Shown here: in pieces, positions 17,876 through 33,665 of the stretch
Position numbering within the stretch: the stretch's first letter is position 1
Layout: every line of letters begins with the position of its first letter
Assembly (NCBI GenBank): GCA_945870145.1
Contig: CAMBQV010000002.1
Coordinates: forward strand, 1 to 50,053
Reading direction: 5' to 3'
DNA from: Akkermansia muciniphila
GTDB taxonomy: Bacteria; Verrucomicrobiota; Kiritimatiellia; RFP12; UBA1067
DNA length: 50,053 nt
Notes under the pieces: model-generated
Told to the model about the DNA's origin: nothing
Database searches by the model: none
The model's input: the letters and a program-made list of their open reading frames with translations, nothing else
Program-made: the position numbers and the translations under genes

Positions 17876-19615
17876 TTACTTACGCCAGACGGGAACGAAG
17901 AGGATGCGCGCACGCTCCTCGGTGCCATCTGCCAAAATACCCCAGAGGAGTGACCATTCGTAACGTTCTGTTTTCTCATGGCCACAGCGCAAATAGGAAG
18001 CCAGAACAGGAATACGCCAATAAGTAAAGTCTGAGCGCACATCCTTCACATGGCGCATCAGGCCGAAGCAGGTGCTGAAATGATGTCGATCCGGATTCTC
18101 TTCCACATTCAGGAGCCAGGTCCTCAGAAGGCTGAAACGATAAAAGGATGACCCTGCGTCGGCCTCCATGAGCCAGCCCCCTAAGAGATCCATTCCTGCA
18201 GAGTGACCTTCATAAGATGGAAAGCGCACAGGCCACGGGAGGTCATTCCCCCAGGAGGCCAACCAGGAGGGGCTTTCCACTGTCACAGGCGTCTTTAAAG
18301 CACGGGATGCCTGATTCTCGCAAGTTTTCTTCTCCGAGGCCTCCTCTGACCAGACCGCAGCGACTAGACGTCCCTCGCGCTGAACGCTCCAGCTCCCCTC
18401 CTTAAAGCGCTCCTTGAGATAATCTTCCATGCGCCATCGAAAAGAGCTTGCAAAACCAGGGCGTTCCCAATAGCTCAACCAGAGTCTCTTTTGCTTGCCG
18501 TCTCCACCTTTCGTGATAAATATCCGATCCCCCATCCAGCCCTTCAGAAAGTCATAATCATCCGCGGCAACAATTTTCTCCCCGCACAACAAGAGCGCGA
18601 TGCCCATCACACCGAGTGAATTGGTCGTGACCTTCTCGTACGTTCTGCCCAAAAGTGCTGGTTCCGGAGCAAAGGTAGCGGGAACAAACCCCTTAAGATA
18701 CCGACGTTCTGGGTAGAGGATCTCCGCTGTTGTCTGTGGCATCCGTCCATCATAGATGCCATTAAGCGCCTGCCATCCTGCATCGCGCCGAAGACGGTTA
18801 CAAAAGACTGCGCCATCGAGGTAGGGACGTGTCAATGCTCCCGTGATAAAAGAAGGGCACCACTTCAATTGCTCGGAGACCTCTGACATGTCAGCATCCT
18901 GCATCAACGATTCAACTCCCCATGCCCCGAAGGGCGTAGCCGTATTCAAGGGAACACCATCTAAAATGCTATCCACGCCGAGCAAAACAGCATTACCCTC
19001 GACAAAGGAGGTCAGCGCTTGTGAACGATCAAAATCTAATTCCGCCTCCTTGGTCCGCTTCGTGAGACCATAGTGTGAGTCTTCGATAGCATGACAGAAC
19101 TCATGGACGTAGACAAACCGTTCCATGCCTTGAAAACCAGCAAGGGATAGCCCATTTGTCTTCTCCTGCTCTTCTACATAGACAAGTCGACGCTCTTCAT
19201 GATCATAATATGCAGCTGCCTCCTCCTGCATAAAAGAGAGAAGCAACGCTTTTAGGGATTGCTCCTTATGTAGCACTCGGAACTGCCGCAAAAGAAGATC
19301 TGACTCCTCCAAAGAGGCCTTGTTATGCGGCTTCTCAAGGTCCTTCTCCATGGAACGCCTCAACTCCTCTTTTGTCTCTTCGCGGATGGCAACCTCGTGT
19401 TGGAGCTTCAAACCCCTCAGTTGTACAGCCATCGCCTGATACTCACGGATCTGGGCCTCCTTGTTATCGCCTTCAGAGATCTCCCTGGGGAGCATCGAGC
19501 AGCCTGTCAACCAGAGAAGAAAAAGAGAAAGCCAAGCAGTAGCAGTTGGCAGTACCAGTTGGCAGTTCGGCCACGTTATAGTTAGGAATCCGCTATGGTG
19601 CTCATTACTTTTCAT
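17876..19615 (-). CDS. Putative lipoprotein with HExxH zinc-metalloprotease motif
   Basis: 579 aa. Lipobox LWLTGC at about residue 38. VYVHEFCHAIED motif. The N-terminal codons overlap a word array (19536-19570), so the start is uncertain. Confidence 0.55.
   Translation of the reverse strand: MKSNEHHSGFLTITWPNCQLVLPTATAWLSLFLLWLTGCSMLPREISEGDNKEAQIREYQAMAVQLRGLKLQHEVAIREETKEELRRSMEKDLEKPHNKASLEESDLLLRQFRVLHKEQSLKALLLSFMQEEAAAYYDHEERRLVYVEEQEKTNGLSLAGFQGMERFVYVHEFCHAIEDSHYGLTKRTKEAELDFDRSQALTSFVEGNAVLLGVDSILDGVPLNTATPFGAWGVESLMQDADMSEVSEQLKWCPSFITGALTRPYLDGAVFCNRLRRDAGWQALNGIYDGRMPQTTAEILYPERRYLKGFVPATFAPEPALLGRTYEKVTTNSLGVMGIALLLCGEKIVAADDYDFLKGWMGDRIFITKGGDGKQKRLWLSYWERPGFASSFRWRMEDYLKERFKEGSWSVQREGRLVAAVWSEEASEKKTCENQASRALKTPVTVESPSWLASWGNDLPWPVRFPSYEGHSAGMDLLGGWLMEADAGSSFYRFSLLRTWLLNVEENPDRHHFSTCFGLMRHVKDVRSDFTYWRIPVLASYLRCGHEKTERYEWSLLWGILADGTEERARILFVPVWRK
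19536..19570. repeat. ggcagt-type word array
   Basis: gcagtagcagttggcagtaccagttggcagttcgg. It shares the exact 18-mer gcagtagcagttggcagt with 33659-33676. Confidence 0.6.
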
Positions 19616-19708
19616 GTGAACCTTTCAAGAAGATGGAAAAGATTAAAGCACCCCCTTCATAAAGTAAAGCAGAATGGCCATTTTCATAAAGAATTCGTTC
19701 GATTCGCT

Positions 19709-19737
19709 TTGACTTTAGCCAGCCATTCTGTTAATTT
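19709..19737 (+). promoter_or_regulatory. Candidate sigma-70 promoter for the tRNA-Pro/tRNA-Asp pair
   Basis: TTGACT (19709-19714), a 17-nt spacer, TAATTT (19732-19737), located 22 nt upstream of tRNA-Pro. Confidence 0.4.
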
Positions 19738-19759
19738 GAAACCCGTTTTTATTTATCAT

Positions 19760-19836
19760 CGGAGCGTAGCGCAGCCTGGTAGCGCGTTTGGTTCGGGACC
19801 AAAAGGTCGAGGGTTCAATTCCCTCCGCTCCGACCA
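19760..19836 (+). tRNA. tRNA-Pro (CGG), CCA encoded
   Basis: CGGAGCG-TA-GCGC-AGCCTGGTA-GCGC-G-TTTGG-TTCGGGA-CCAAA-AGGTC-GAGGG-TTCAATT-CCCTC-CGCTCCG-A-CCA, 77 nt. Confidence 0.95.
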
Positions 19837-19849
19837 TTTTTTATCCTGC

Positions 19850-19926
19850 GGGGACGTGGCGCAATTGGTTAGCGCACCGGACTGTCGATCCGGTGGTCGC
19901 GGGTTCGAATCCCGTCGTCCCCGCCA
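19850..19926 (+). tRNA. tRNA-Asp (GTC), CCA encoded
   Basis: 77 nt, the exact reverse complement of 17715-17791. Confidence 0.95.
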
Positions 19927-19942
19927 TTTTTTATGGCGTTTC

Positions 19943-20734
19943 ATGGAAACAACCCTTCAAGTCATCCTCTTAGCGATTCTGCAAGGCATTGCGGAGTTTC
20001 TGCCCATCAGCAGTTCCGGACATCTGGTTCTCGGCCAAGCCCTTCTGGGCATGAAAGAGGCTGGCATCACCTTGGAAGTCGCCCTCCATGCCGGCACCTT
20101 GGTGTCAACCCTCATTTATTATCGGACTGCGGTGTTGAAGATCATCACAGGCCTCCTCAAGGGTTGTCGTGACTCCTGGCGCACCGCACTCTACATCGTG
20201 ATTGCAGGTATTCCGGCGATCGTTTTTTATCTCCTCTGCAAAAAGCACGTAGATGCCGCCTTTGAAGATCCCACTGTTGTGGGATGCGCCCTGCTCTTCA
20301 CAGGGGTTATTTTAACCTCCTTGCGCTGGATTCCCGCCCGAGATGAACTCAACACCTTTTGGCGTGCGACCTTCATCGGTGTTGCGCAAGCCATTGCCAT
20401 CCTTCCAGGGGTCAGCAGATCAGGCATGACCATCTCTGCGGCACGGTTCTCCGGCATCAGCCCTGAAAAATCTGCCGAGTTTTCCTTTTTAGCCAGCATC
20501 CCCCTGATTGCGGGAGCCACACTGAAGAAACTTCTGGAGTCTTTTCAGGAGACCCCTGCTGTAACAGAAGCCTCACTCTCTCCCCTTTTGCTCCTCTTTG
20601 GGGCTGTAATCTCTGCCATCGTCGGTTATTTCGCTCTGGCGTTTCTTGTCAAAACCCTGCGCGGCCGCTATTTCTGGTGCTTTGGCATCTACTGCCTGCT
20701 TGCCGGTTGCTGTACCATCCTCTTCACGCGCTAA
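19943..20734 (+). CDS. uppP: Undecaprenyl-diphosphate phosphatase
   Basis: 263 aa from METTLQVILLAILQGIAEFLPISSSGHL (BacA signature). The longer ORF from 19595 reads through both tRNA genes and is rejected. Confidence 0.92.
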   Translation: METTLQVILLAILQGIAEFLPISSSGHLVLGQALLGMKEAGITLEVALHAGTLVSTLIYYRTAVLKIITGLLKGCRDSWRTALYIVIAGIPAIVFYLLCKKHVDAAFEDPTVVGCALLFTGVILTSLRWIPARDELNTFWRATFIGVAQAIAILPGVSRSGMTISAARFSGISPEKSAEFSFLASIPLIAGATLKKLLESFQETPAVTEASLSPLLLLFGAVISAIVGYFALAFLVKTLRGRYFWCFGIYCLLAGCCTILFTR

Positions 20735-20780
20735 GGTCTCTCTTTTTGCACTATACGATGCAAAAGGCATCTGGTAATAT

Positions 20781-21206
20781 ATGCGCATGAAAAAGAATAC
20801 CTCTGTGATACCAGAACCCGTCCGGGATTTGTTGGTGCAGGCAGCAAGATGGGCAGCACGCAACGCTTACTGCCCTCATTCGCATTACGCGGTCGGCGCA
20901 GCCGTGCTCATGACCGACGGACAAATCTATACAGGGTGCAATGTGGAGAATGCCTCTTATGGCCTAACACTCTGTGCCGAACGTGTCGCCATCTCCAAGG
21001 CCGTCAGCCATGGCAATCGCACCTTTGCCGCGCTCGCGGTCGTCGGCGGGACTCCTAAAAAACCAGCCTTCCCATGTGGCGCTTGCCGTCAGGTCATGGT
21101 CGAATTCATGAGTTCAGAGAGCCCTGTTTATATTGCGCCTCTGAAATCGGGAAAACCTGTAAGTACGACCGTGGGTGCCTTGCTTCCTTGCGCGTTTCAG
21201 AAATAA
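20781..21206 (+). CDS. cdd: Cytidine deaminase
   Basis: 141 aa. CAERVA and PCGACRQ zinc-binding motifs. Confidence 0.9.
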   Translation: MRMKKNTSVIPEPVRDLLVQAARWAARNAYCPHSHYAVGAAVLMTDGQIYTGCNVENASYGLTLCAERVAISKAVSHGNRTFAALAVVGGTPKKPAFPCGACRQVMVEFMSSESPVYIAPLKSGKPVSTTVGALLPCAFQK

Positions 21207-21221
21207 TGATAGGCGTCCTTT

Positions 21222-21830
21222 ATGCGCATCTACAGTGATTTTGATGATGTCATCTGCGAAACCGCACAAGCCCTTTCCGTTCTTGCAAAGGGCATGTTTG
21301 GTCGTGACGTGCCGTATGAAAATATCGAGTTCTTTAATTTGCAGAAGGCATTCTCGCTGACGGACGAGGAGATTAACCGCCTGATGGACCGCGCGCATGA
21401 GACGGACTTTCTCGTAGCCCTCAACCCGATTCCTGATGCCGTCAGCAGCGTGCAAGCCTTGTCTGCCGCCGGCCATGAAGTTGTGATCGTCACTGGACGC
21501 CAATCCCTCTGCCATGAGGGTACCTCCCAATGGCTTCGCAACCACGGCCTTGGCCATCTTGAAATCCTCTATGTTGACAAGTATAAACGCGCACCCGCCA
21601 CGCTACCAGCGCACGTCCCCAAGATGCTGACCATCGAAGAGCTGCACGAGCTCCACTTTGACATCGCGATCGACGACTCTCCAACCGCACTTGATTTACT
21701 GATGCATCGGACGCAGTGCCACATCATTGTTTTCGACCGCCCCTGGAACCGCCAGTATACCGGGATCCCCCATCTCCGTCGCGCCTTGACTTGGCAAGAA
21801 ATTCTCGCTTTGGATATTATTAAAACCTAA
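21222..21830 (+). CDS. HAD-family 5'(3')-deoxyribonucleotidase-like phosphatase
   Basis: 202 aa. N-terminal DFDDV (DxDxV) nucleophile motif. Adjacent to cdd. Confidence 0.6.
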   Translation: MRIYSDFDDVICETAQALSVLAKGMFGRDVPYENIEFFNLQKAFSLTDEEINRLMDRAHETDFLVALNPIPDAVSSVQALSAAGHEVVIVTGRQSLCHEGTSQWLRNHGLGHLEILYVDKYKRAPATLPAHVPKMLTIEELHELHFDIAIDDSPTALDLLMHRTQCHIIVFDRPWNRQYTGIPHLRRALTWQEILALDIIKT

Positions 21831-21843
21831 GAAAAGATAAAAC

Positions 21844-23862
21844 ATGAAAAACGAAACACCATGGTTGACCTCCTTGAGTTTAGCTCTCCTAATCACGAGC
21901 CAAGCCTTCTGCCAGACACCTCCGCCGCCGCCTTATGTGGGTGTCTCCTACTATCCGGAAATGGGAATGGATAAGGTCGACAAGGATATCCAGCAGATGA
22001 AGGCGATCGGCGTGAACATGGTCCGCATGAGCGAGTTTGCCTGGATCCGCATGGAACCATCCAAGGGGTCTTATGATTTTACATGGCTCCATCAGGTCGT
22101 TGACAAAATGACAGCAGCAGGCATTGCCGTGGTCCTCTGCACACCCACGGCCACACCACCGATCTGGCTCAGTGAAAAACATCCTGAAATCCTGCGCGTC
22201 AACCCGACTGGACAGCAAATTACCCATGGCGGACGGCGGCACTACTGCCCCAACTCCCCGATCTATCAAAAGTACTCCGTACAAATCGCCCAAAAGATGG
22301 CCGAAGAATTCGCGGCCTCGCCCTTCGTTGTCGCGTGGCAGATTGATAATGAGTTCTGGGATGACTGCTACTGTCCCGAATGCGAGAAGGCCTTCCACGT
22401 GTGGCTCAAGAAGCGCTATGGGACGATTGAAAATATGAATCAAACATGGGCAACCGTCTTGTGGAGCCAGGCGTATCAATCCTTTGACCAGGTGCCACTT
22501 CCGAATCCTTCATGTGTCGGCGGACGCCACCACCCCTCGCTCCGTGTCGCCTACCGCCATTTCATGAGCGACAGCTACATCGCCTACTGCGATGCGCAGG
22601 CGTGTGTCATCCGCAAGAAGACCGGAAGAGCTGTCACCACGAATGCACACAATCCTGTTTATCAGCGGATTGACTACGAAGCCCTCTTCTCCGGACTCGA
22701 CATTGTCGGCACCGACAGTTATGCGGGACCGAACGCACTCTTGCGTTTCGCCTTTGAAGCAGACTGGATGCGCGCGCTCGGCAAGCGTTTCTGGCTGGCC
22801 GAGACCTGCAGTACCCACGCAGCGGCCGCGGCTGTGGGTGATAAAGAGTCGCTTGTTTTTTACCCAGGGTCACTCCGCTCAAAGATGTGGCTTACCTACG
22901 CACTCGGTGGCGAAACCGTCAGCTTCTGGCTCTGGAAGACGCACTGGGCCGGACAAGAGATGGAACACGGAAGCCTCGTCTATCCGTGGGGAGAGGAGTG
23001 TGCGAACACACCTGAAATTCGCCAAGTGGCCAAAGAGTTAAATACGCACGGCGACTGGTTCCGCGCGACACGCCCTAAACCAGCGGCTGTCGCCATGCAC
23101 TATGGTGTACCCCTCCAATGGCAATTTGAAGCCAGCGCGATTGCCGCGAACATCAACTATGATGCGGACATCACAGGATTCCATCGCCTACTCGCCAATG
23201 CCGGCATCCCGCGGGATGTCATCATGGCCGGGGCTCCGGTTGATTCATATCAGATGGTCCTCTCGCCTTTTGTGCCCTCTTTGGACGCAGACTTAATGAA
23301 ACGTATGCAAGCCTTTGTTGAAAAGGGCGGCACATGGGTTCTGGGTCCGCTCTCCGCCTGTCGCACGACAGAGACCACAGCCCATCAGGATGCCTGCTAC
23401 GGTGCGACGTTCGAACAATGGCTGGGGGTTCACGTGAGGCACCGCATGACACCCGGGGGTGTCACCCAACTGAAAGACAACCAAGAGACCGTCTCGTGCC
23501 GTCTCTGGTGTGATGCTTATGAGCTTCGCCAGCCCAATCGCCGTGTCCTCGCCTCTTATTCAGGCGGACCCTTGAATGGCTTTGCAGCAGTCGTCGAGTG
23601 TCCGATCGGCAAGGGACGCGTCATCCTGCTCGGCACACAACCCGATGATGCCTGGCTCACGAAACTGGTTAAGCGCCTTACACCTCAATCCACATGGGAA
23701 GTAACCCCCGGTGTTGTCGTTGCTGAACGTGTCACAGCGGACAACAAACCAGCCGGTGCTATTCTGGTGAATACCCAGGCCGAGCCCGCAACCTATCGCA
23801 CCAAAGGCTCAGAAGCAAAGACCCTGCCGAGTTATGGGGTCGAAATCTTGAAAGCTAAGTAA
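21844..23862 (+). CDS. Secreted GH42-family beta-galactosidase
   Basis: 672 aa. Signal peptide, then GVSYYPE...MVRMSEFAWIRMEPSKGSYDF, typical of the GH42 N-terminus. WQIDNE catalytic region. Confidence 0.85.
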   Translation: MKNETPWLTSLSLALLITSQAFCQTPPPPPYVGVSYYPEMGMDKVDKDIQQMKAIGVNMVRMSEFAWIRMEPSKGSYDFTWLHQVVDKMTAAGIAVVLCTPTATPPIWLSEKHPEILRVNPTGQQITHGGRRHYCPNSPIYQKYSVQIAQKMAEEFAASPFVVAWQIDNEFWDDCYCPECEKAFHVWLKKRYGTIENMNQTWATVLWSQAYQSFDQVPLPNPSCVGGRHHPSLRVAYRHFMSDSYIAYCDAQACVIRKKTGRAVTTNAHNPVYQRIDYEALFSGLDIVGTDSYAGPNALLRFAFEADWMRALGKRFWLAETCSTHAAAAAVGDKESLVFYPGSLRSKMWLTYALGGETVSFWLWKTHWAGQEMEHGSLVYPWGEECANTPEIRQVAKELNTHGDWFRATRPKPAAVAMHYGVPLQWQFEASAIAANINYDADITGFHRLLANAGIPRDVIMAGAPVDSYQMVLSPFVPSLDADLMKRMQAFVEKGGTWVLGPLSACRTTETTAHQDACYGATFEQWLGVHVRHRMTPGGVTQLKDNQETVSCRLWCDAYELRQPNRRVLASYSGGPLNGFAAVVECPIGKGRVILLGTQPDDAWLTKLVKRLTPQSTWEVTPGVVVAERVTADNKPAGAILVNTQAEPATYRTKGSEAKTLPSYGVEILKAK

Positions 23863-23887
23863 GCAGGCAACCATTTTTCTGATACAC

Positions 23888-25525
23888 ATGATACAGGACA
23901 AAACTATGGCGCACATTTTTCTATACGGGCCTCCCGGCAGCGGCAAATCAACCATCGGACAGCTCCTTAGCCACCGGCTTGAGCGTAAGTTCATTGACGT
24001 CGACCAAACCATCGAAGCCAGCGCACGGATGATCATCCGTGATATCTTTGCCGCCGAGGGCGAAGCTGGCTTCCGCATCCGTGAACAGCGCGCCCTCCGG
24101 GATGCCGCAGCCGATGTCGAACCGTGTATCATCAGTCTGGGGGGTGGCGCGTTGCTGAACCCTGACAGTCGCGCCTTTGCAGAAGCAAAAGGCGTTGTTC
24201 TCTTCATGGATGTCAGCGTGGCCATTCTAGAACAGCGCATCGCCAATAAACCGAATCATCGTCCCTTGCTGGCCGTCAACACAGACTGTGCGCAACCCCC
24301 TGCAGCAGGCAAGGGAAAGCCGATCGCGCAGCTCCTCGCTGAACGGGCCAGCCACTACGGCTCCTTTCCCCATCGCGTCGTGGTCGGGACAGGCTCGCCT
24401 GAGGAGACCACCGACTGCGTCCAAGCGGAACTCGGACTCTATCATGTCTCAGGCATGGGTAAGCCATATGATGTCGTGATCGGCGCCGACCTGCTCGCCC
24501 AACTCGACAAGCAACTTCAAGCTCTGGAGATCGGGAAAAAGACCGTCATTGTCGGCGACACCCACACCCTTCCCCTCTATGGCGATCGGGTCGTAAAAGC
24601 CCTTCACCGAGCTGGCATCGAAGCCTCTTGCTTTGCAATCCCGGCAGGCGAAGCCACCAAGACGCTCGAGACTGTCTCAACGATTCTGGGGGCCTTTGCA
24701 AAGGCAGGAATTGAACGTACCCACACCGTCATCGCCCTCGGCGGCGGCGTGGTCGGTGACCTCACAGGGTTTGCCGCGGCAATCTGGATGCGGGGCATCC
24801 GCTGGATCAACCTGCCGACAACTTTGCTCGCGATGGTCGACTCTGGCATCGGTGGTAAGACAGGTGCTGACCTTCCAGAAGGAAAGAACCTTGTGGGAGC
24901 CTTCCACGCGCCCAGCGCGGTCTTCATCGACACCTCGACGCTGGCCACACTTCCCGTATCCGAACTCCGTTGCGGACTGGCGGAGACCATCAAGCATGCC
25001 ATCATCGGCGATCCTGGCTTGATCCCGCTTCTCGAACGCTTTTCCTGTTGCAAGCGTGCTGATCCATCCAAGCCCTGTTCAGCGACAACCGATGCAAAAA
25101 CACTGATCCCACTCGTGGCGCGCTCATTGGCGGTCAAGGTCAAGACAATCATCAAAGACCCTTATGAAAAAAATGTCCGGGCATCCCTTAATTTGGGCCA
25201 TACGATCGGACATGCCATCGAACATCACGCCCACTTTTCCATGTTGCATGGCGAGGCCGTCGCCATCGGAACTGTGATTGAGGCGCGCTTAGCCGAGAAG
25301 GCAGGCCTCGCCTCGCCAGAGTTTGCAGATCAACTTGCCACGATCTTCGCCACAGTCGGACTGCCGACGACCTTGCCACAAGGCATCTCGTGCAGTCAGC
25401 TCATCGACGCCATGTTGCGCGACAAGAAAACAGCGAACGGAAAGATCCGTTTCTCCCTGCCGATCGGACTCGGAGATGTGCGCATCCATCAGGTCGTGGA
25501 CGAAGCGCTTCTGCGACAGATTTAA
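23888..25525 (+). CDS. aroKB: Bifunctional shikimate kinase / 3-dehydroquinate synthase
   Basis: 545 aa. The N-terminus has the AroK P-loop (GPPGSGKST). The rest is AroB (GGGVVGDLTGFAAA, NLGHTIGHAIE). Confidence 0.9.
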   Translation: MIQDKTMAHIFLYGPPGSGKSTIGQLLSHRLERKFIDVDQTIEASARMIIRDIFAAEGEAGFRIREQRALRDAAADVEPCIISLGGGALLNPDSRAFAEAKGVVLFMDVSVAILEQRIANKPNHRPLLAVNTDCAQPPAAGKGKPIAQLLAERASHYGSFPHRVVVGTGSPEETTDCVQAELGLYHVSGMGKPYDVVIGADLLAQLDKQLQALEIGKKTVIVGDTHTLPLYGDRVVKALHRAGIEASCFAIPAGEATKTLETVSTILGAFAKAGIERTHTVIALGGGVVGDLTGFAAAIWMRGIRWINLPTTLLAMVDSGIGGKTGADLPEGKNLVGAFHAPSAVFIDTSTLATLPVSELRCGLAETIKHAIIGDPGLIPLLERFSCCKRADPSKPCSATTDAKTLIPLVARSLAVKVKTIIKDPYEKNVRASLNLGHTIGHAIEHHAHFSMLHGEAVAIGTVIEARLAEKAGLASPEFADQLATIFATVGLPTTLPQGISCSQLIDAMLRDKKTANGKIRFSLPIGLGDVRIHQVVDEALLRQI

Positions 25526-25538
25526 TTTAAGGGGACAG

Positions 25539-26591
25539 CTAATGTGAAGAGAGTCCATTGAGCCACAGCAAGGCCGAAAGCTCGCCCTCTTCCTGCAATC
25601 TCGTGAAAAACACCAGCCTCTCCTCCGGGGGCAAATCGAACCCATCGTCACACATTAGACTGAAAGAGTTCACAAGGGCACGAAACTCCGCGATTTCTCT
25701 AGTCCGTTGGGCGACCGTCATGCCGCGGGATTCAAGCTCAGTTTCCTGTGGAAGTCGCGACAAAAACCTCTCCTCCATGGTCATGCTAAACATATTCTCA
25801 ACAAGAGTATGGCCCATCTGGCTCTGCATACTTTGGGCAAGGCTTGAGCCGGCAAGGGCCCACGTCCTAGCAAAATCGATCCTGTCTTCTGTGGCCGATA
25901 TTTCTGTGTGAACATCCTGTAACATGTTCATGAGATTACGCATGGGCGTCAACAGGCGATTCTCCACATTGAAAGATGCCACCCCAAGTGCATCATCCGG
26001 CGAAAAACCCGAGAACACGAGAAATTCCTGTCCATCACTGATCATCTCGCTGACGTAGTTGTTAGCAGTGGTTTTAAGGCCTGCCTCTAAGAAGAGGTTA
26101 AGTGCGCCCTCTCGGCCCCCCTCCTGCAACAACTGTTCGCCAAGTAGGTAACAAGGCACGGCATCGTCTGGAAGTAATTTCTGCAACCTTTCCAACAGGG
26201 CTTTTCGTTCCTTTGTAGGCTCGGCATCGTATAAGACGCAATGAAACAGTACCATCGGGTCATCAGGATATCGAGCAAGCGCCTCCTTCAGAAAGTCCTT
26301 GTTCATACTCGCTCGAAACGCTTGCAGAAGTCTGCGCGCGTCGCGGCCATAATTAGTCAGATAGGTTTCAATCAGATTCTCCGCCTCAGGTGGCGTCTCT
26401 GGTTTGTTCATCTCAGGGAAAACTGATGGATGATTCGTTTTGACCCCAGTCCCAACAGAAACAGCAGCGATCTTTGTGGGTACACCAGCTTTTGAGACTT
26501 CTGCCGTTTCAGGCCGCTCTCTCGTCCATATCCAAAGCAGTATCACCACACCTAGAATAGCCACCCCAACTATTAGAAATCTTTTAGACAT
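25539..26591 (-). CDS. Membrane-anchored hypothetical protein
   Basis: Start taken at MSKRFLIVGVAILGVVILLWIW (26591). The ORF extension to 26654 would overlap the GH32 3' end. Confidence 0.5.
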   Translation of the reverse strand: MSKRFLIVGVAILGVVILLWIWTRERPETAEVSKAGVPTKIAAVSVGTGVKTNHPSVFPEMNKPETPPEAENLIETYLTNYGRDARRLLQAFRASMNKDFLKEALARYPDDPMVLFHCVLYDAEPTKERKALLERLQKLLPDDAVPCYLLGEQLLQEGGREGALNLFLEAGLKTTANNYVSEMISDGQEFLVFSGFSPDDALGVASFNVENRLLTPMRNLMNMLQDVHTEISATEDRIDFARTWALAGSSLAQSMQSQMGHTLVENMFSMTMEERFLSRLPQETELESRGMTVAQRTREIAEFRALVNSFSLMCDDGFDLPPEERLVFFTRLQEEGELSALLWLNGLSSH

Positions 26592-26619
26592 AATTTGTTT
26601 TCTCTCTATTCCGATCACA

Positions 26620-29586
26620 TTACCGCCATATGGACTTAATCGGGTGAAGCTCAAGATTCACCAGTTTCACATTTCCTCCAATGGCAGTCAGATTCAAGCT
26701 ATCGTCTTTGGGATCGAATGCGACCTGCTGACTAAGAGAGAAGACTCCGCCATCGGAAAAGATTTCAATTGATGACCAATCGACAAGCATGCGTATCGTT
26801 AGAAGCTGGTTTGAATCCGGGCGTAATACCGGTGACTGCTTGTCGCCAAATTTGTTTTTCTCAACACCTTGATAGATGATTTTTTGTCCAGCAATATCAT
26901 ATTGATAGCTGACGTTCGCGATTTGAAACACAACCTTTTCTGCCGTGGCACCCTTCAAGTCGAAGGTTAGGGTCATGTCGAAGGTCTTTGCCCGGACACC
27001 CGTGAGGATATTATCAGCGCCCACTTCCCTCTGACCTATTCGAACAGGAGTGCCGTTATACAACGCTTCAATAGCCGCAATAGGGCTCCGAGTGACGCGC
27101 ATTTTACCATCACGTGTTACCAGTCCCAGTTCAACTGGAAAGGTCGCGTTCCGCTCCCAGGGTTCCTCGCCAATGCCACCGTTCCACTCGTCCATCCAGG
27201 CGAGTTGGATGTATTTCTTCTGGGGTAGTGTGTATGGGAAAAAGCACTGGCCCGCATAAAAGTCAGGCCCAACATCCATGAAGAGGCTCTCTGTGGACTG
27301 GTTCTCGTCAATAAAGCGCGTTCCATCAAAGTGACCAACAAGGTATTGGCCGGCGGCATCATAAATGACCCACTTCATGTTGTTCGGATCACCGTTAAGC
27401 GGGAGCTCCACAAGATCGGGGCATTCGAAACCAAACTTGATGTTACTCAGCTTTTCCCAGTTGATGAGATCCTTCGATCCGTAAAAAGTGGTGCCTTCTT
27501 CGTAAATGGCCATCACCCACTTTTTCGTCGGTTCATGCCAAATGACGCAGGGATCCCTCGGGACGGCGCCACGGGTGGGATTGGCGACAGGGTTTTTATC
27601 GTAGTTATTCCAGATTTTGCCCTTGTTATTACTCCAAGCGATGCAAGTGCCCACTTTGGTTCCTGTATAGAATGCGATCAGGGCGGAGTTTGTTGAGCCC
27701 GTGATTTTCGCTGCAACTGGCCCGCTAACCACAATTCCACTCCCTGAGTAAACCTGTTCTCCTGAAACGTTTTGCTTGGCGCCAGATGAGCGGGCATGGC
27801 TGTTTTTGCCAATTAAAGCGAGCCCATGATCGTTCCAATGGAGTAGGTCATCGGTGCTGGCATAGCCACCATCTCGATTGTTTTTTCCCCACTGATAGAG
27901 CATGTGATACTTGCCATCGAGATACCACAGGGCGTTTATATCGTTCATCCATCCATTTTGGGGTGAAAAGTGAAATTGGGGACGATAGGGTTCCTGATAA
28001 TCTGTAGCCTGGTAATGTCGATTGAACGGTGAGGCGCCCTCTAGCTTGGGATCAGAATATCCCCATCCCGCAGACATCAAAATCGTTCCCAGCAGGCAGG
28101 AATATGGTGCTGTTTTTACATGATTATTCACATTTTTCTTCACCGTGCGCCAATCGAGGCCTGTGCGCCGGGCGACTTCGCCATAACTACCATAACGTTT
28201 GAAGAGCCGCTGACAATAGCCCGCGCTCAGTTGTTGCGCTGACAACTCGCCTCGCTCAAATGCGGATAGCCAGACATCTTCACCTGCGGTCATATTCGTG
28301 TCTCCGCGATATTCGCCTGTCAGCAAAATACAGCGGACAGCTTGTTCCAGCTCTCGGACATTTCCTGGCCAGGCGTAGTCACATCCGACTCCTTTTTCAA
28401 GTGCTCCCAAAACAGCCGTGAGCGTAATCGACTCCACATCCCCTCCCAGCCGTGACAGGATATGACGGATGAGCATCTCCAGTTCATGCGGAGACTCCTG
28501 AAGCCGCAGCCGCAACGTTGGCACCTCGATCTGATCCGAACAGAGACGATAGAAGAAGTCGTCACGAAATGTACCCTCGCGCCGTAAGGTGCCGAGTTCA
28601 CGATTCGTCGCGGCGATGACACGACCTTTGAATCGACAGACCTCATGGCTGCCGACTGGCGAGAAGGTGCGTTGCTGCAAGACTTGTAAGAGTTTAATCT
28701 GAATCGGCTCTGAAGCATCACCGATCTCATCCAAGAAGATCGCCCCATGTGGACTGCACCGCGCAAACACACCCTCGTGCCGCTCCACCGCACCCGTAAA
28801 GGCGCCCTTGCGATGGCCGAACAACTCGGACTCAATCAGTGTCTCCGAAAACTGCGACAGATTGATCGCCACAAAGGCGCGTGTGAAACTCTCGGCAAAA
28901 GCTCGTTTCCCTGAAAGGAAGGGAATGAACCCTGAACGCCCCAACGCAGCAGCGACCGCGCCCTTGCCTGTGCCGGTCTCGCCAAGCAACAAGGTCGAGA
29001 AATCCTCCATCCGATTCCATAGTCCGCGCACATACCAGCGCATATCATGCGTGAAAATATTGTCCCAGAGTCGCTTGCGGAGTTGCTTCATACAGGGGCT
29101 TTCCCCCACGAGACTATTTGATATAAAATAAAAGGCCCGTCGCATCTGATAAAAGATGGCGATATACTGCTCAGCCTCTGTGCGCGAAAACCCATGCTGT
29201 ACCAATTTTTCAAAGAGTCCGACTGCAAAGGGCGCCTCACATACAGCATCCCCTGCCTCACCCTGCCGTCGGATCAACGCATCGAAATCCGGCCGATGCC
29301 GATGAAACAAACTAAAGAGTATCCCCGCCGTCACCAGCTCCTGATCCGCCTCTGTCTCAAACGAACCCTGTGCACACACACCTGTCGAAACCGTTAGCCG
29401 CTTGAGCCGTTGTTCCAATTCGGTTAAGAGTCCCTGCAACGCTTCATCCCATTCGCCCGTCGCGACCCCCAGAACACGCATGTCGGCCTCGCGCCGGGCA
29501 TCAGTGAAGGGATTGATAAAGGCTGATTGTTGTACCGCCTCAAAGAACTGCCGATCCTCAGAGGAGAGCTTTCTCTTGTTTTTCAT
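26620..29586 (-). CDS. Sigma-54-dependent activator (AAA+ plus Fis-type HTH) in one frame with a GH32 beta-fructofuranosidase domain
   Basis: 988 aa with no stop. bEBP motifs: GETGTGKG, ESELFGHRKGAFTGA, IFLDEIG, WPGNVRELE, and HTH GEVARRTGLDWRTVKK. The hydrophobic linker APYSCLLGTILMSAGWG follows, then GH32 motifs WMNDIN, RDP and FECPD. Confidence 0.8.
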   Translation of the reverse strand: MKNKRKLSSEDRQFFEAVQQSAFINPFTDARREADMRVLGVATGEWDEALQGLLTELEQRLKRLTVSTGVCAQGSFETEADQELVTAGILFSLFHRHRPDFDALIRRQGEAGDAVCEAPFAVGLFEKLVQHGFSRTEAEQYIAIFYQMRRAFYFISNSLVGESPCMKQLRKRLWDNIFTHDMRWYVRGLWNRMEDFSTLLLGETGTGKGAVAAALGRSGFIPFLSGKRAFAESFTRAFVAINLSQFSETLIESELFGHRKGAFTGAVERHEGVFARCSPHGAIFLDEIGDASEPIQIKLLQVLQQRTFSPVGSHEVCRFKGRVIAATNRELGTLRREGTFRDDFFYRLCSDQIEVPTLRLRLQESPHELEMLIRHILSRLGGDVESITLTAVLGALEKGVGCDYAWPGNVRELEQAVRCILLTGEYRGDTNMTAGEDVWLSAFERGELSAQQLSAGYCQRLFKRYGSYGEVARRTGLDWRTVKKNVNNHVKTAPYSCLLGTILMSAGWGYSDPKLEGASPFNRHYQATDYQEPYRPQFHFSPQNGWMNDINALWYLDGKYHMLYQWGKNNRDGGYASTDDLLHWNDHGLALIGKNSHARSSGAKQNVSGEQVYSGSGIVVSGPVAAKITGSTNSALIAFYTGTKVGTCIAWSNNKGKIWNNYDKNPVANPTRGAVPRDPCVIWHEPTKKWVMAIYEEGTTFYGSKDLINWEKLSNIKFGFECPDLVELPLNGDPNNMKWVIYDAAGQYLVGHFDGTRFIDENQSTESLFMDVGPDFYAGQCFFPYTLPQKKYIQLAWMDEWNGGIGEEPWERNATFPVELGLVTRDGKMRVTRSPIAAIEALYNGTPVRIGQREVGADNILTGVRAKTFDMTLTFDLKGATAEKVVFQIANVSYQYDIAGQKIIYQGVEKNKFGDKQSPVLRPDSNQLLTIRMLVDWSSIEIFSDGGVFSLSQQVAFDPKDDSLNLTAIGGNVKLVNLELHPIKSIWR

Positions 29587-29619
29587 ACATTGAATGTATC
29601 ATCCTTGTACATAAAATGT
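29585..29619. promoter_or_regulatory. Two palindromes, candidate enhancer (UAS) sites
   Basis: ATACATTGAATGTAT at 29585-29599 and ACATAAAATGT at 29609-29619, lying 74-108 nt upstream of the -24 element. Confidence 0.35.
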
Positions 29620-29692
29620 CTAATCTGTTTTTTAAGACCCTCGTTAAAAGTCATAACCCTTTCATTTTAAACAATTCTCGAGCGCTTACTTT

Positions 29693-29708
29693 ATGGCACG
29701 TTCCTTGC
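29693..29708 (+). promoter_or_regulatory. Sigma-54 (-24/-12) promoter
   Basis: TGGCACGTTCCTTGCA, with GG at 29694-29695 and GC at 29706-29707 (GG-N10-GC). It lies 54 nt upstream of the ATG at 29762 and is divergent from the activator gene. Confidence 0.75.
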
Positions 29709-29761
29709 AATATACAAAATGAATCTTAACGTGAAATACAATAGAGAAAGACCATCTTCAG

Positions 29762-30202
29762 ATGAAAAAAACAATCATTAGCTCCTTTATCATCCTCGCT
29801 TATGTGAATCTCATCCCTTACGCCTGCAGGCTTTGGCGTGGTCTTGACTGGGTGGCTCAGTATCTTCCAGACAACAAAGACCATCTCATTTCAGGACTGC
29901 TCTTTGTCGGCATTTTCGCATCGCTACCGGCGATTCCATTGGTCGTTACATTCCTGTTCCGCAAGTGGATTCCGGTCACATTTGCGCTTTCGATCATCTG
30001 TACTACAACCCTGTTATGCCTCTGGCATCACAACTATGATCTTGCGTCAGATGCCCAAGCTGCCATCGGCCTCATGTTTATCCCGATATTTGCAACTGTA
30101 CTCACTTCCGTTGGTGCCGGAATCATCGGAACAATCGAATTCCTCGTCCGTAGAAGAAAAAAAGGTGCCCAACAGACACGTGCTGGCGCAGAGACTGCCT
30201 AA
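29762..30202 (+). CDS. Small integral membrane protein, hypothetical
   Basis: 146 aa, four hydrophobic helices, basic C-terminus. Confidence 0.55.
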   Translation: MKKTIISSFIILAYVNLIPYACRLWRGLDWVAQYLPDNKDHLISGLLFVGIFASLPAIPLVVTFLFRKWIPVTFALSIICTTTLLCLWHHNYDLASDAQAAIGLMFIPIFATVLTSVGAGIIGTIEFLVRRRKKGAQQTRAGAETA

Positions 30203-30260
30203 AATCGTTACTCCCAATTGGGAATTTTTTCAATTGTCTTAAGACAAAAAGAAAGGTACC

Positions 30261-33200
30261 GTGTCATCCATGACAAAGCAATTCAAATGGCTCAACCTCT
30301 CGCAAGCGATCGGCGCCTTGATTGATAACACCTTCAAGATGCTCACGGTGATTTATTTGGTCAATGCCCTTGGCAAGGATTTATCCCAGACGCTCTCGCT
30401 CGCCTCAGCGCTTCTGGTCATCCCCTTCATCCTCTTCTCGAATTGGGCCGGTGCGCTGACAGATCGCTACAGCAAACGCAACCTCTTTGTGATCATCAAA
30501 TGGGGAGAGCTCCTGTTGTTACTGCTGGCATTCCCTGCGCTCCTCTCCGGGCAGGCGTGGTGTATGCTCGCACTCCTCTTCCTGCTGGCCGCCCAAAGCG
30601 CTTTCTTCGGACCTGTCAAGCGCGGCATCGTGCCAGAGCTGGTCTCCGGTGATGCGTTGGCCCAAGCCAACGGACAGATGACCGGGGCCTCTTACTTGGC
30701 GATTATTCTCGGACTCTTTTTGCCATCACTCGCAATAACCATTCTGCATCTCAGTTATTCCATGGTACTCCTGCTCTGCGTTGCCTTTTCGATCTGCGGA
30801 CTCCTCTGCGCCTATCGCCTCCCCCCTACTCCAGCAGCGAATCGCCCCTCCCAGTGTTCGCTCTGGCTCTTTCCTGACGCACTACGTACACTACGCTTCC
30901 TGACGCCCCATGTTTGGCTCAAGCGCGCGCTCTGGGGCTCCGTGGCCTTCTCAGGCGTCTCTGCCCTCTTCCAACAAAACCTCGTCATCACTGCGCAAGA
31001 CGTTTTTGCACTCTCGGTGGAAGCCAGTGGCTATCTCTTTCTGCTTGTAGCCCTCGGAATCATGTTGGGCGCCTGGGTTTCTGGAAGGCTCTCCCCGCAT
31101 ACCATCGAGACAGGGCTTATTCCAATCGGTGCCCTGGGACTCGCACTCTCACTCTTTGGCCTGGGCATCACCCGTCATCCACTTATGCTTGGTTTTTGGC
31201 TGGTCTTGCTCGGCATCACTTCTGGTGCTTGTATCGTGCCGTTGACTGCCTATATCCAAAGTAAGTCGCCCGCGCACAATCGTGGCGAGATCTTCGGAGC
31301 AATCGAATTTTGGAGTTTCTTAGCCATGGTGTTAGCGTCTGGGCTCTTTTATCTTCTGACAGGAATCCTTCATGTAAATGCACAAGCCTGCATGTTGATT
31401 ACAGGAGGAATCGGCGCAGGTGCTGCGGCATGGACCCTCTACCGCCTGCCTCACCACACCTTCCGTTTTCTTGTTTCACGTCTCACACGCCTCTTGTATC
31501 GTGTCGAGATTCATGGATTGGAGAATCTTCCGCGCGAGGGCGGGGCGCTACTTGTGGCTAACCACACCGCGTATGGGGATGTCACCATTCTCCAGTCAGC
31601 CACGCAACGGACCATCCGTTACGTCATGTCGCGTGAAATATTTTCGAGCTGGGCCTGGTGCCAACCCTTCTTCCGCCTCTCAAGTGTGATCCAGATTCAC
31701 ACAAAAGATGGTCCGCGCGCCCTCGTCCACGCCTTGACGCATGCACGTGAGGCCCTTCAGCAGGGCGAACTCGTCGGTATCTTTCCTGAAGGCAGGCTCA
31801 CGCCCAACGGCACCATCCAGAGTTTTCACAAGGGATTCGAGAAGATCGTCAAGGGAACAGATGCGCCGATTATTCCCGTCCATCTCGACAATCTCTGGGG
31901 AAGCATTTTCAGTTACCGTTATGGCAAACCCGGCTTCCGCTGGCCCAAGACATTTCCCTTGCGTGTGACACTCCGTATCGGCAAGCCCCTGAAGTCCGAT
32001 GCCACTGCCGAGGAGGCGCGCCAGGCTGTGATCGAACTCGGGGTTCAAACCGCGCTCGAACATGCTGCGCGTCCCGGTAACACCCTGGGACAACGCCTCC
32101 TTCAGCAAGCCAGAAGACACTGGGGACGCCTAATTGCGCAAGACACCCTTGGACAATCCTTGACTTACGGCAAGCTTCTCTCTGGCGCACTCGCTCTAAA
32201 TGCGCGCCTCAAAACACGGCTCGCCCCTGCACAGAACATCGGCGTCCTCTTCCCGCCTTCGGTCGGTGCCCTGCTCGTCAATGTAGCACTCGCGCTGCAA
32301 GGCAAGACTGTCGTCAACCTCAATTGGACTGTCTCGCAAGAGGCCTTCGTCTCCGCGGTCAAGCAGAGTGGCCTCCGCCAGATCATCACCTCCCGGCGCT
32401 TTCTTTCAAACCTTACACTACCCGAAACCTCGGCTGAACTGCTGTGCCTCGAAGATCTGCTTCAGACGCTCACCTTGAAAGAAAAGGTGTCAGCCTTTCT
32501 ACAGGCACGCTTTGCATCTGCCCAGGCGCTGTGTAACGGCTCGTTTCCCAAACCCTCGGATCCAGCCTGCATCATTTTTTCCTCTGGGTCTACAGGTATC
32601 CCGAAGGGCGTGGTCTTGAGCCATGCAAATCTGCTCTCCAATGTTGACGCCCTTGAAACTGTTGTACCCGTGACACCGCGGGATACGCTCTGCGCCTCGC
32701 TGCCCTTCTTCCACTGCTTTGGTTTTTTAGGAACGCTCTGGTGGCCTTTACTCATCGGGATCAAGACTGTTTTTCATGCGAATCCGCTCCAAGTCTCCCA
32801 GATCCTACACCTCTTGCGTGAGGCCAAAGCCACGACACTGCTCACCACACCGACCCTGTTACAGGCCTATCTGCGCAAGGGCACAAAAGAGGACTTCGCC
32901 ACGTTACGTCATCTCTTCACTGGCGGAGAAAAACTTCCCGTCGCACTCGCTGAAGCCTGCGAAAAGGCTATCGGACTCCGTCCCCTCGAAGGGTATGGAT
33001 CCACCGAACTTTCACCGGTTGTCGCGATGGGCCTTTCAGATCGTACGTTTGACGCCCTCACGACGAAGGGGAATAAGCCAGGGAGTACGGGGCGTCCCCT
33101 GCCCAACATCGCACTCAGAACAGTCGACCCTGAGACAGGCGCTCCTCTGCCGGCCTACGAAACCGGACTCCTCCTCGTCAAAGGACCGAACGTCATGACC

Positions 33201-33665
33201 GGTTATCTGAACAACCCGGAGAAGACAGCCGAGGTTTTGCACGACGGCTGGTATAACACAGGCGACATCGCTCGTATTGACGAAGAGGGCTTCCTTTTCA
33301 TTACCGACCGCCTCTCGCGTTTTAGTAAAATCGGTGGCGAAATGGTCCCCCATGGGGCCGTCGAAGAGGTGCTTCAACACGCCAGCGGCACAACAGAACC
33401 CTGCGTCGCCGTCATCGGGGTGCCAGACGAGAAGGCCGGTGAACGTCTCGTCGTCTGCCTCACGCCACAGGCGGGCGATATTGAGAAACTCTATCAGGCC
33501 CTCAAGGAGAGCAAACTTCCCAACCTCTGGATCCCGAGCCGTACCGACTTCATTTCCATACCAGAAATTCCTTTACTGGGCACAGGCAAGATTGATCTGC
33601 GCTCCGTACGCGAAGGGATAACGCAAGCCCAGCCGCCCAGAGGGGGCAGTGGCAGTAGGCAGTAG
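30261..33665 (+). CDS. LplT-like MFS transporter / PlsC acyltransferase / acyl-ACP synthetase (Aas) triple fusion
   Basis: 1134 aa. About 12 TM helices at the N-terminus, an acyltransferase HX4D-type motif (NHTAYGD), and AMP-binding motifs (SSGSTGIPKG, YGSTE, TGD, GKID). GTG at 30261 or ATG at 30270. The last 8 codons and the stop lie inside a word array. Confidence 0.85.
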   Translation: MSSMTKQFKWLNLSQAIGALIDNTFKMLTVIYLVNALGKDLSQTLSLASALLVIPFILFSNWAGALTDRYSKRNLFVIIKWGELLLLLLAFPALLSGQAWCMLALLFLLAAQSAFFGPVKRGIVPELVSGDALAQANGQMTGASYLAIILGLFLPSLAITILHLSYSMVLLLCVAFSICGLLCAYRLPPTPAANRPSQCSLWLFPDALRTLRFLTPHVWLKRALWGSVAFSGVSALFQQNLVITAQDVFALSVEASGYLFLLVALGIMLGAWVSGRLSPHTIETGLIPIGALGLALSLFGLGITRHPLMLGFWLVLLGITSGACIVPLTAYIQSKSPAHNRGEIFGAIEFWSFLAMVLASGLFYLLTGILHVNAQACMLITGGIGAGAAAWTLYRLPHHTFRFLVSRLTRLLYRVEIHGLENLPREGGALLVANHTAYGDVTILQSATQRTIRYVMSREIFSSWAWCQPFFRLSSVIQIHTKDGPRALVHALTHAREALQQGELVGIFPEGRLTPNGTIQSFHKGFEKIVKGTDAPIIPVHLDNLWGSIFSYRYGKPGFRWPKTFPLRVTLRIGKPLKSDATAEEARQAVIELGVQTALEHAARPGNTLGQRLLQQARRHWGRLIAQDTLGQSLTYGKLLSGALALNARLKTRLAPAQNIGVLFPPSVGALLVNVALALQGKTVVNLNWTVSQEAFVSAVKQSGLRQIITSRRFLSNLTLPETSAELLCLEDLLQTLTLKEKVSAFLQARFASAQALCNGSFPKPSDPACIIFSSGSTGIPKGVVLSHANLLSNVDALETVVPVTPRDTLCASLPFFHCFGFLGTLWWPLLIGIKTVFHANPLQVSQILHLLREAKATTLLTTPTLLQAYLRKGTKEDFATLRHLFTGGEKLPVALAEACEKAIGLRPLEGYGSTELSPVVAMGLSDRTFDALTTKGNKPGSTGRPLPNIALRTVDPETGAPLPAYETGLLLVKGPNVMTGYLNNPEKTAEVLHDGWYNTGDIARIDEEGFLFITDRLSRFSKIGGEMVPHGAVEEVLQHASGTTEPCVAVIGVPDEKAGERLVVCLTPQAGDIEKLYQALKESKLPNLWIPSRTDFISIPEIPLLGTGKIDLRSVREGITQAQPPRGGSGSRQ

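Follow-up and report, generated by a model that had tools for sequence, protein, structure and literature searches.

The window analyzed here, a stretch of 50,053 nucleotides from Akkermansia muciniphila (contig CAMBQV010000002.1 of GenBank assembly GCA_945870145.1; GTDB class Kiritimatiellia), carries on its minus strand a single open reading frame (ORF) of 988 amino acids (aa) without interruption (26620-29586), in which a sigma-54 activator of the bacterial enhancer-binding protein (bEBP) type runs in frame into a beta-fructosidase of glycoside hydrolase family 32 (GH32). The coordinates of this gene, its parts and the neighboring features are listed in Table 1. Pfam places the Sigma54_activat AAA+ domain at residues 194-353 (143.4 bits, gathering cut-off 20.2), the AAA lid at residues 369-422, Glyco_hydro_32N (PF00251) at residues 539-829 (158 bits) and Glyco_hydro_32C (PF08244) at residues 861-981 (42.5 bits); the NCBIfam assignments are concordant for both halves. 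Walker A (GETGTGKG, 202-209), GAFTGA (261-266) and Walker B (FLDEIG, 284-289) each occur once in the protein, as do WMNDIN (546-551), RDP (677-679) and FECPD (720-724). An earlier note, made from the letters of this DNA, had described a complete bEBP AAA+ core with GAFTGA, a frame continuing without a stop across the junction (translated as RTVKKNVNNHVKTAPYSCLLGTILMSAGWGYSDP) into a full GH32 with WMNDIN, RDP, FECPD and a beta-sandwich, and two in-frame GTG codons (28143-28141 and 28131-28129); the ORF translation, the Pfam domains and the motifs agree with this description, and both GTG codons are present. Taken singly, both halves are ordinary representatives of their families.

Table 1. Features of the fused gene and its surroundings in the window.
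Feature	Position	Strand	Remarks
Fused ORF bEBP::GH32	26620..29586	-	988 aa, ATG start, stop codon included; likewise intact in L067 (1027-3993)
bEBP N-terminal all-helical domain	29017..29586	-	residues 1-190; no Pfam family
AAA+ sigma-54 interaction domain and lid	28318..29007	-	residues 194-423; Walker A 28960-28983, GAFTGA 28789-28806, Walker B 28720-28737
C-terminal three-helix HTH	28111..28239	-	residues 450-492; recognition helix 479-492 spans the fusion point
Junction	28125..28139	-	relatives' bEBP-locus homology ends at 28125; GH32-locus homology starts at 28139/28136; (G/A)TGAATA shared
In-frame GTG (V486)	28129..28131	-	at the Met position of standalone GH32; candidate internal start of a 503-aa preprotein
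GH32 Sec-type signal peptide (predicted)	28060..28131	-	residues 486-509, ending in conserved GWG; the "hydrophobic segment" of the earlier note
Mature GH32 beta-fructosidase (predicted)	26623..28059	-	residues 510-988; WMNDIN 27934-27951, RDP 27550-27558, FECPD 27415-27429
Segment of ~2.6 kb not in sister-species loci	25526..28124	-	GH32 and 350-aa ORF; GC 49.4% against 53.7-55.7% in the flanks
350-aa ORF, co-inserted	25539..26591	-	N-terminal hydrophobic anchor; no Pfam family
aroK-aroB fusion gene	23888..25525	+	convergent; its stop codon is the exact point from which the locus is again syntenic with relatives
Sigma-54 -24/-12 promoter TGGCACGTTCCTTGCA	29694..29709	+	directed toward the 146-aa ORF; no other perfect consensus match in the window
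Two invariant palindromes	29587..29619	.	ACATTGAATGT (29587-29597) and ACATAAAATGT (29609-29619); 90-115 bp upstream of the promoter
Probable bEBP target operon	29762..33665	+	146-aa membrane ORF (29762-30202) and MFS/acyltransferase/AMP-binding (Aas-like) gene (30261-33665)

The regulator half belongs to the NtrC family of sigma-54 activators and shares with FleQ, NtrC1, ZraR and PspF the AAA+ domain with GAFTGA and Walker A/B motifs, the fold and a C-terminal helix-turn-helix (HTH); the divergent, perfect -24/-12 promoter is a further likeness. The AlphaFold model (pLDDT 90.5, pTM 0.84) consists of an all-helical N-terminal domain, the AAA+ core and a three-helix HTH, the helices of which are predicted at residues 450-465, 468-475 and 479-492 with pLDDT > 90; from residue 496 on pLDDT is < 50. 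The predicted core fold is similar to FleQ (Foldseek, 7e-17), NtrC1, ZraR, NifA and PspF at a target-normalized TM of ~0.8, and a phmmer search of PDB matches the bEBP half to ZraR at 5e-39. The HTH was described previously as Fis-type. A C-terminal HTH in the bEBP half is supported by the model, but profile comparisons lend no support to the Fis type: Pfam HTH_8 has no match in this half and the hhalign comparison with Fis was not significant (1% probability). The best solved match to the family HTH profile is the HTH of the IS21 transposase IstA (E 8e-4). The protein differs from the NtrC-family activators named above in its helical N-terminal domain of ~190 residues, which is without a family, in an HTH that is not detectably HTH_8/Fis, and in the secreted enzyme of 503 residues appended in frame in the window lineage only. 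The N-terminal domain of the bEBP family is all-helical with confident prediction and without a Pfam family; N25-P26-F27 and several further residues of it are invariant or nearly so in 59 family sequences. When GTDB species genomes were scanned, members of the family turned up in Kiritimatiellales, Pontiellaceae and related metagenome-assembled genomes. The family is widespread in Kiritimatiellales, uncharacterized, and has a novel N-terminal domain. The rpoN gene is not present within the 50-kb window.

The second half is a predicted beta-fructosidase with intact WMND nucleophile, RDP and EC acid/base motifs, and the catalytic motifs are kept across the orthologue alignment. Standalone GH32 beta-fructosidases/levanases, such as that of Verrucomicrobiia bacterium Tous-C3TDCM, are 503 aa long, 84% identical over 99% of the length, and have the same signal peptide and the WMNDIN/RDP/EC motifs equally intact. 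Their initial Met aligns with V486 of the fused protein (GTG 28131-28129), and from V486 the window protein is exactly 503 aa long. They differ from the window gene in that here the original ATG and 5' region of GH32 have been lost, GTG stands at the Met position, and the frame is shared with the upstream regulator. The stretch HVKTAPYSCLLGTILMSAGWG aligns with the N-terminal signal peptide of the standalone orthologues and has the conserved GWG at its end. Its hydrophobicity (KD12 1.58) is inside the range of the nearest GH32 orthologues and its hydrophobic core of ~12 residues is like that of their cleavable signal peptides, while the best 19-residue segment in it gives an additive dGapp of ~+6.6 kcal/mol, far from the values of transmembrane helices. 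These comparisons establish the hydrophobic stretch as a predicted signal peptide inherited from GH32 and not as an evolved transmembrane linker; the transmembrane helix of the earlier note was not borne out. In the structural model the recognition helix directly adjoins the signal peptide, and no linker lies between them. Were the protein embedded in the membrane, its DNA-reading helix would be kept at the membrane surface, a point that speaks against a functional tethered activator.

In related genomes the two genes are separate. The whole 988-aa ORF was searched against about 5.8 billion proteins, and among the top 120 matches, which were checked for domain combination, none contained PF00158 and PF00251 in one protein; each covered one half. 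The bEBP family was followed in 57 related loci (Kiritimatiellales and relatives) with the C-terminus covered. A stop codon after the HTH, which the earlier note had named as refuting evidence if seen in orthologues, was found in 57/57 loci, 3-57 residues after RTVKK (3-8 in most), and no GH32 was found near the bEBP inside the fetched flanks. Distant bEBP relatives (≤ 53% identity) stop soon after the conserved "...LDRRTVKK" and have no GH32 neighbor. Orthologues in the sister species are 489 aa long with about 91-93% amino-acid identity. The 90%-identity cluster of the query contains many separate 489-aa bEBPs ending in KKNVNIQ*, KKNVNSQ* or KKNVTCL*, and also a separate GH32 of 503 aa starting with MNNHIKT. 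In the sister species (82-88% nucleotide identity) the locus is syntenic: the Aas-like gene and the 146-aa ORF diverge from the 489-aa bEBP gene, which converges with aroKB. The shikimate kinase and 3-dehydroquinate synthase (aroK-aroB) are fused in all sister-species loci as well. Between bEBP and aroKB, L014 and L015 have an 84-nt hairpin spacer alone (L014 8471-8554), and L007 and L009-L012 have a PIN/MazE toxin-antitoxin pair (L007 8471-9365). This gap is a variable insertion spot, occupied by the spacer only, by PIN/MazE, or, in the window (25526-28124), by GH32 and the 350-aa ORF. The merging of a conserved bEBP-GH32 neighbor pair was considered and rejected, as GH32 lies near the bEBP in no relative. 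The alternative offered in the earlier note, that two genes were joined by loss of a stop codon and that GH32 has its own signal peptide and may be translated from an internal GTG, is essentially right as to the joining, the signal peptide and the possible internal start but not as to the mechanism: the relatives are without any GH32 at the bEBP locus, so that no stop was lost between pre-existing neighbors.

The breakpoints were located by nucleotide alignment. Homology to the GH32 locus starts at 28139 with L017 (89.7%) and at 28136 with L005; on the other flank, homology to the relatives resumes at 25525. The 3' end of the relatives' bEBP reads AAG AAG AAT GT(C/G) AAT ATC CAA TAA, the donor-type start of GH32 reads GAGAAAA|ATG AAT AAT CAC, and the window junction reads AAG AAA AAT GTG AAT AAT CAT. 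No meaningful direct or inverted repeats were found at the insert ends, and no integrase or transposase lies inside the insert. The co-inserted 350-aa ORF has only 9 homologues among the 5.8 billion proteins, all unannotated and none linked to GH32; on the sole long contig, the homologue lies beside GH101 and sulfatase genes and not beside GH32. The ancestral state, as kept in sister species, is a 489-aa bEBP ending in ...RTVKKNVNIQ-TAA, followed by the 84-nt hairpin spacer and the convergent aroKB. In the window lineage, a foreign segment of ~2.6 kb was joined to the bEBP 3' end through illegitimate recombination, with microhomology at the join between ...AAT GTG AAT A(TC CAA TAA) of bEBP and (A)ATG AAT AAT CAT... 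of GH32. By this event the bEBP locus was deprived of the last two bEBP codons, the TAA and the spacer, and GH32 of its own ATG and 5' region; the bEBP frame now continues straight into the GH32 signal peptide. An origin by a single indel (A5->A4, TG duplication or A6) was also tried; in each variant a stop comes back within 1-3 codons. Recombination with insertion is preferred over a single indel because the relatives' ending KKNVNIQ* (489 aa) fits no indel variant. Sequence comparison thus establishes the origin of the fusion and the identity of each part.

The fusion is carried only by the window, by an identical copy and by one further strain. The ENA contig L001 is 100% identical to the window. 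The JGI Ga0247841 contig L067 is 96.5% identical, with 393 differences over 11 kb, and represents a different strain; its junction 35-mer is the same as in the window and its 988-aa ORF is intact. The chance that a sequencing or assembly artefact, i.e. a chimeric join or an indel error, produced a false read-through is practically negligible. Stops do lie within 1-3 codons of the junction in both other frames, so that a single indel would restore two genes, and L001, being identical, might stem from the same reads as the window. However, L067, from another data source and another strain, has the identical junction and the intact ORF; the insert is syntenic with the relatives on both flanks, and a chimera would need two misjoins; and the shared microhomology of 6-15 nt is far below assembler k-mers. 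The expectation that resequencing may remove the fusion was thus contradicted by its presence in two diverged strains. Between the two fused alleles 13 codons are different, with 2 synonymous and 0 non-synonymous changes in bEBP and 6 synonymous and 5 non-synonymous changes in GH32; these changes are compatible with maintenance of both halves, although their small number allows no firm conclusion. Several of them are clustered at codons 697-713, as would be expected of a recombination tract. The divergence between window positions 19542-30612 and L067 is mosaic: it is about 0.3% across the fusion and its flanks (24.4-30.6 kb) and about 7-8% from GH42 to BacA (19.5-24.4 kb). Such a pattern points to recent recombination, or to a sweep, of the segment with the insert. 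No unfused allele of the same species was found, and the fusion may be fixed in the species. The 988-aa ORF is real, and it is probably a recently derived, lineage-specific chimera of two ordinary genes, with GH32 likely still made separately.

In L007, L009-L016 and L019, none of which has GH32, the divergent promoter TGGCACGTTCCTTGCA is identical at every base. The palindromes ACATTGAATGT and ACATAAAATGT are conserved along with it across the sister species, and one of them abuts the bEBP start codon; they are candidate binding sites of the bEBP, possibly acting as upstream activating sequences or autoregulatory sites. The 146-aa ORF and the Aas-like gene are syntenic in all close relatives. 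The 146-aa product is a multi-pass membrane protein without a Pfam family, and the Aas-like gene is of the lysophospholipid-recycling type. This arrangement suggests a membrane-lipid function under sigma-54 control for the operon. The ancestral target of the bEBP would be this divergent promoter at 29694 and its envelope/lipid-type operon, not fructan use. No genes for fructan uptake or catabolism and no second GH32 copy occur in the window, the rest of which is housekeeping.

These features bear on the first proposal of the earlier note, namely that the ORF encodes an evolved, membrane-tethered one-component sigma-54 activator, the extracytoplasmic GH32 module of which senses or cleaves fructan and controls the 29694 promoter. 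An N-in, C-out topology is formally possible, and the order of parts (cytoplasmic DNA-binding domain, hydrophobic segment, extracytoplasmic C-terminal domain) is on paper that of the ToxR/CadC-type activators. Members of that family have a true transmembrane helix, a linker and a conserved architecture. The window protein, by contrast, has a predicted cleavable signal peptide, that of the orthologues, with a dGapp unsuited to a transmembrane helix and no compensating changes; no linker leads from the HTH to the hydrophobic core in the AlphaFold model; and the architecture is a singleton in the proteins searched and in the 57 family loci. The persistence of the fusion with both halves intact in two strains would fit a tethered sensor, but relatives without GH32 have kept the promoter and the sites upstream of it, and the target genes are unrelated to fructan and have no fructan genes nearby. 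The only functional connection known between sigma-54 activators and GH32 fructanases is that of LevR, which controls levDEFG-sacC in Bacillus and Clostridium (PMC6615313; PMC3162934). LevR works in trans via PRD/EII domains and phosphorylation by the phosphotransferase system; here the genes are physically fused by accident, no regulatory relationship between them is evident, and neither the 988-aa protein nor P0251 has a Pfam match to PRD, EIIA or EIIB domains. A literature search yielded no paper on membrane-anchored bEBPs and none on the use of fructan in Kiritimatiellota. With stops in all 57 orthologous loci, a signal peptide in place of the helix and no linker, a tethered fructan-sensing activator is not supported and is considered highly improbable.

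The expression of the two halves is best considered against the start sites usual in the window. A Shine-Dalgarno-like core precedes only 7/30 window genes and most leaders are A/T-rich, which suggests largely Shine-Dalgarno-independent initiation in the host organism. The leader of GTG 28131, GGTGAAGAAAAAT, is A-rich and non-Shine-Dalgarno and in this respect resembles the usual starts here. Internal promoter and terminator signals were discarded as evidence, since their counts equal the shuffled expectation and are uninformative. In the preferred reading, the bEBP half would keep its ancestral job, activation of the divergent sigma-54 promoter at 29694, and GH32 would now be transcribed from the bEBP promoter. 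GH32 would most likely still be made as a secreted preprotein of 503 aa from the candidate internal start GTG 28131, exported, and cleaved after GWG509, with ribosomes that start at the bEBP ATG giving a read-through fusion of 110 kDa as a by-product. Several points weigh against this reading. GTG is a minority start codon (3/30 genes), and no promoter signal above chance was found inside the bEBP gene. The donor arrangement of GH32 with the 350-aa ORF was found nowhere, so that the insert may have been acquired in two or more steps; an alternative alignment, in which TG was inserted after the ancestral GH32 ATG, is formally possible. The persistence of the fusion in two diverged strains indicates that it is at least tolerated and could be selected.

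It is also conceivable, but rather unlikely, that only the 988-aa fusion is made, and that its internal signal peptide engages Sec, so that GH32 is exported and then released by cleavage after GWG509. The bEBP would then be left with a short hydrophobic C-terminal tail, transiently membrane-bound or freed by signal-peptide peptidase, and one gene would yield both functional proteins through processing. Such a course is consistent with the lack of a stop and of any demonstrable ribosome-binding site or promoter between the halves, with the positive n-region KKNVNNHVK before the signal peptide and the conserved small-residue GWG cleavage motif, and with the intactness of both halves in two strains. 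Efficient targeting is, however, doubtful for a weakly hydrophobic signal peptide behind a folded cytoplasmic domain of 485 residues. Moreover, GH32 output would depend on the normally low expression of an activator, and the recognition helix, no more than about 4-8 residues away from the hydrophobic core, would be blocked from DNA binding by tethering. There is a slim chance that the fusion was kept because it is useful, the signal sequence taking the nascent chain to the membrane and processing by signal peptidase or signal-peptide peptidase freeing an exported fructosidase and an activator. If so, secretion load or fructan would govern how much activator is available and hence how strongly the 146-aa/Aas-like envelope operon is expressed, and a newly arisen membrane-coupled sigma-54 activator would have been caught at its origin.

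For annotation, the ORF should not be taken to represent a novel type of sigma-54 activator that senses fructan and is bound to the membrane, and it is a warning against over-reading chimeric architectures. Read as a chimera of two ordinary genes, it is a well-resolved natural example of the birth of a chimeric ORF, with breakpoints placed within a few nucleotides, the ancestral state preserved in sister species, and two strains carrying it. It also offers a natural test case for the behavior of an internalized signal peptide and for the tolerance of a regulator to a large C-terminal appendage. The by-products of the analysis, i.e. the bEBP family and the conserved sigma-54 promoter with candidate binding sites before the Aas-like operon, are perhaps of greater use than the fusion. 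Elsewhere in the window, an ORF of 865 aa on the minus strand (362-2959) has as its sole Pfam match the middle domain of the hydrazine synthase alpha-subunit (HZS_alpha, E 2.8e-21). This match is unexpected in a non-anammox context and probably reflects just a shared beta-propeller-type module.

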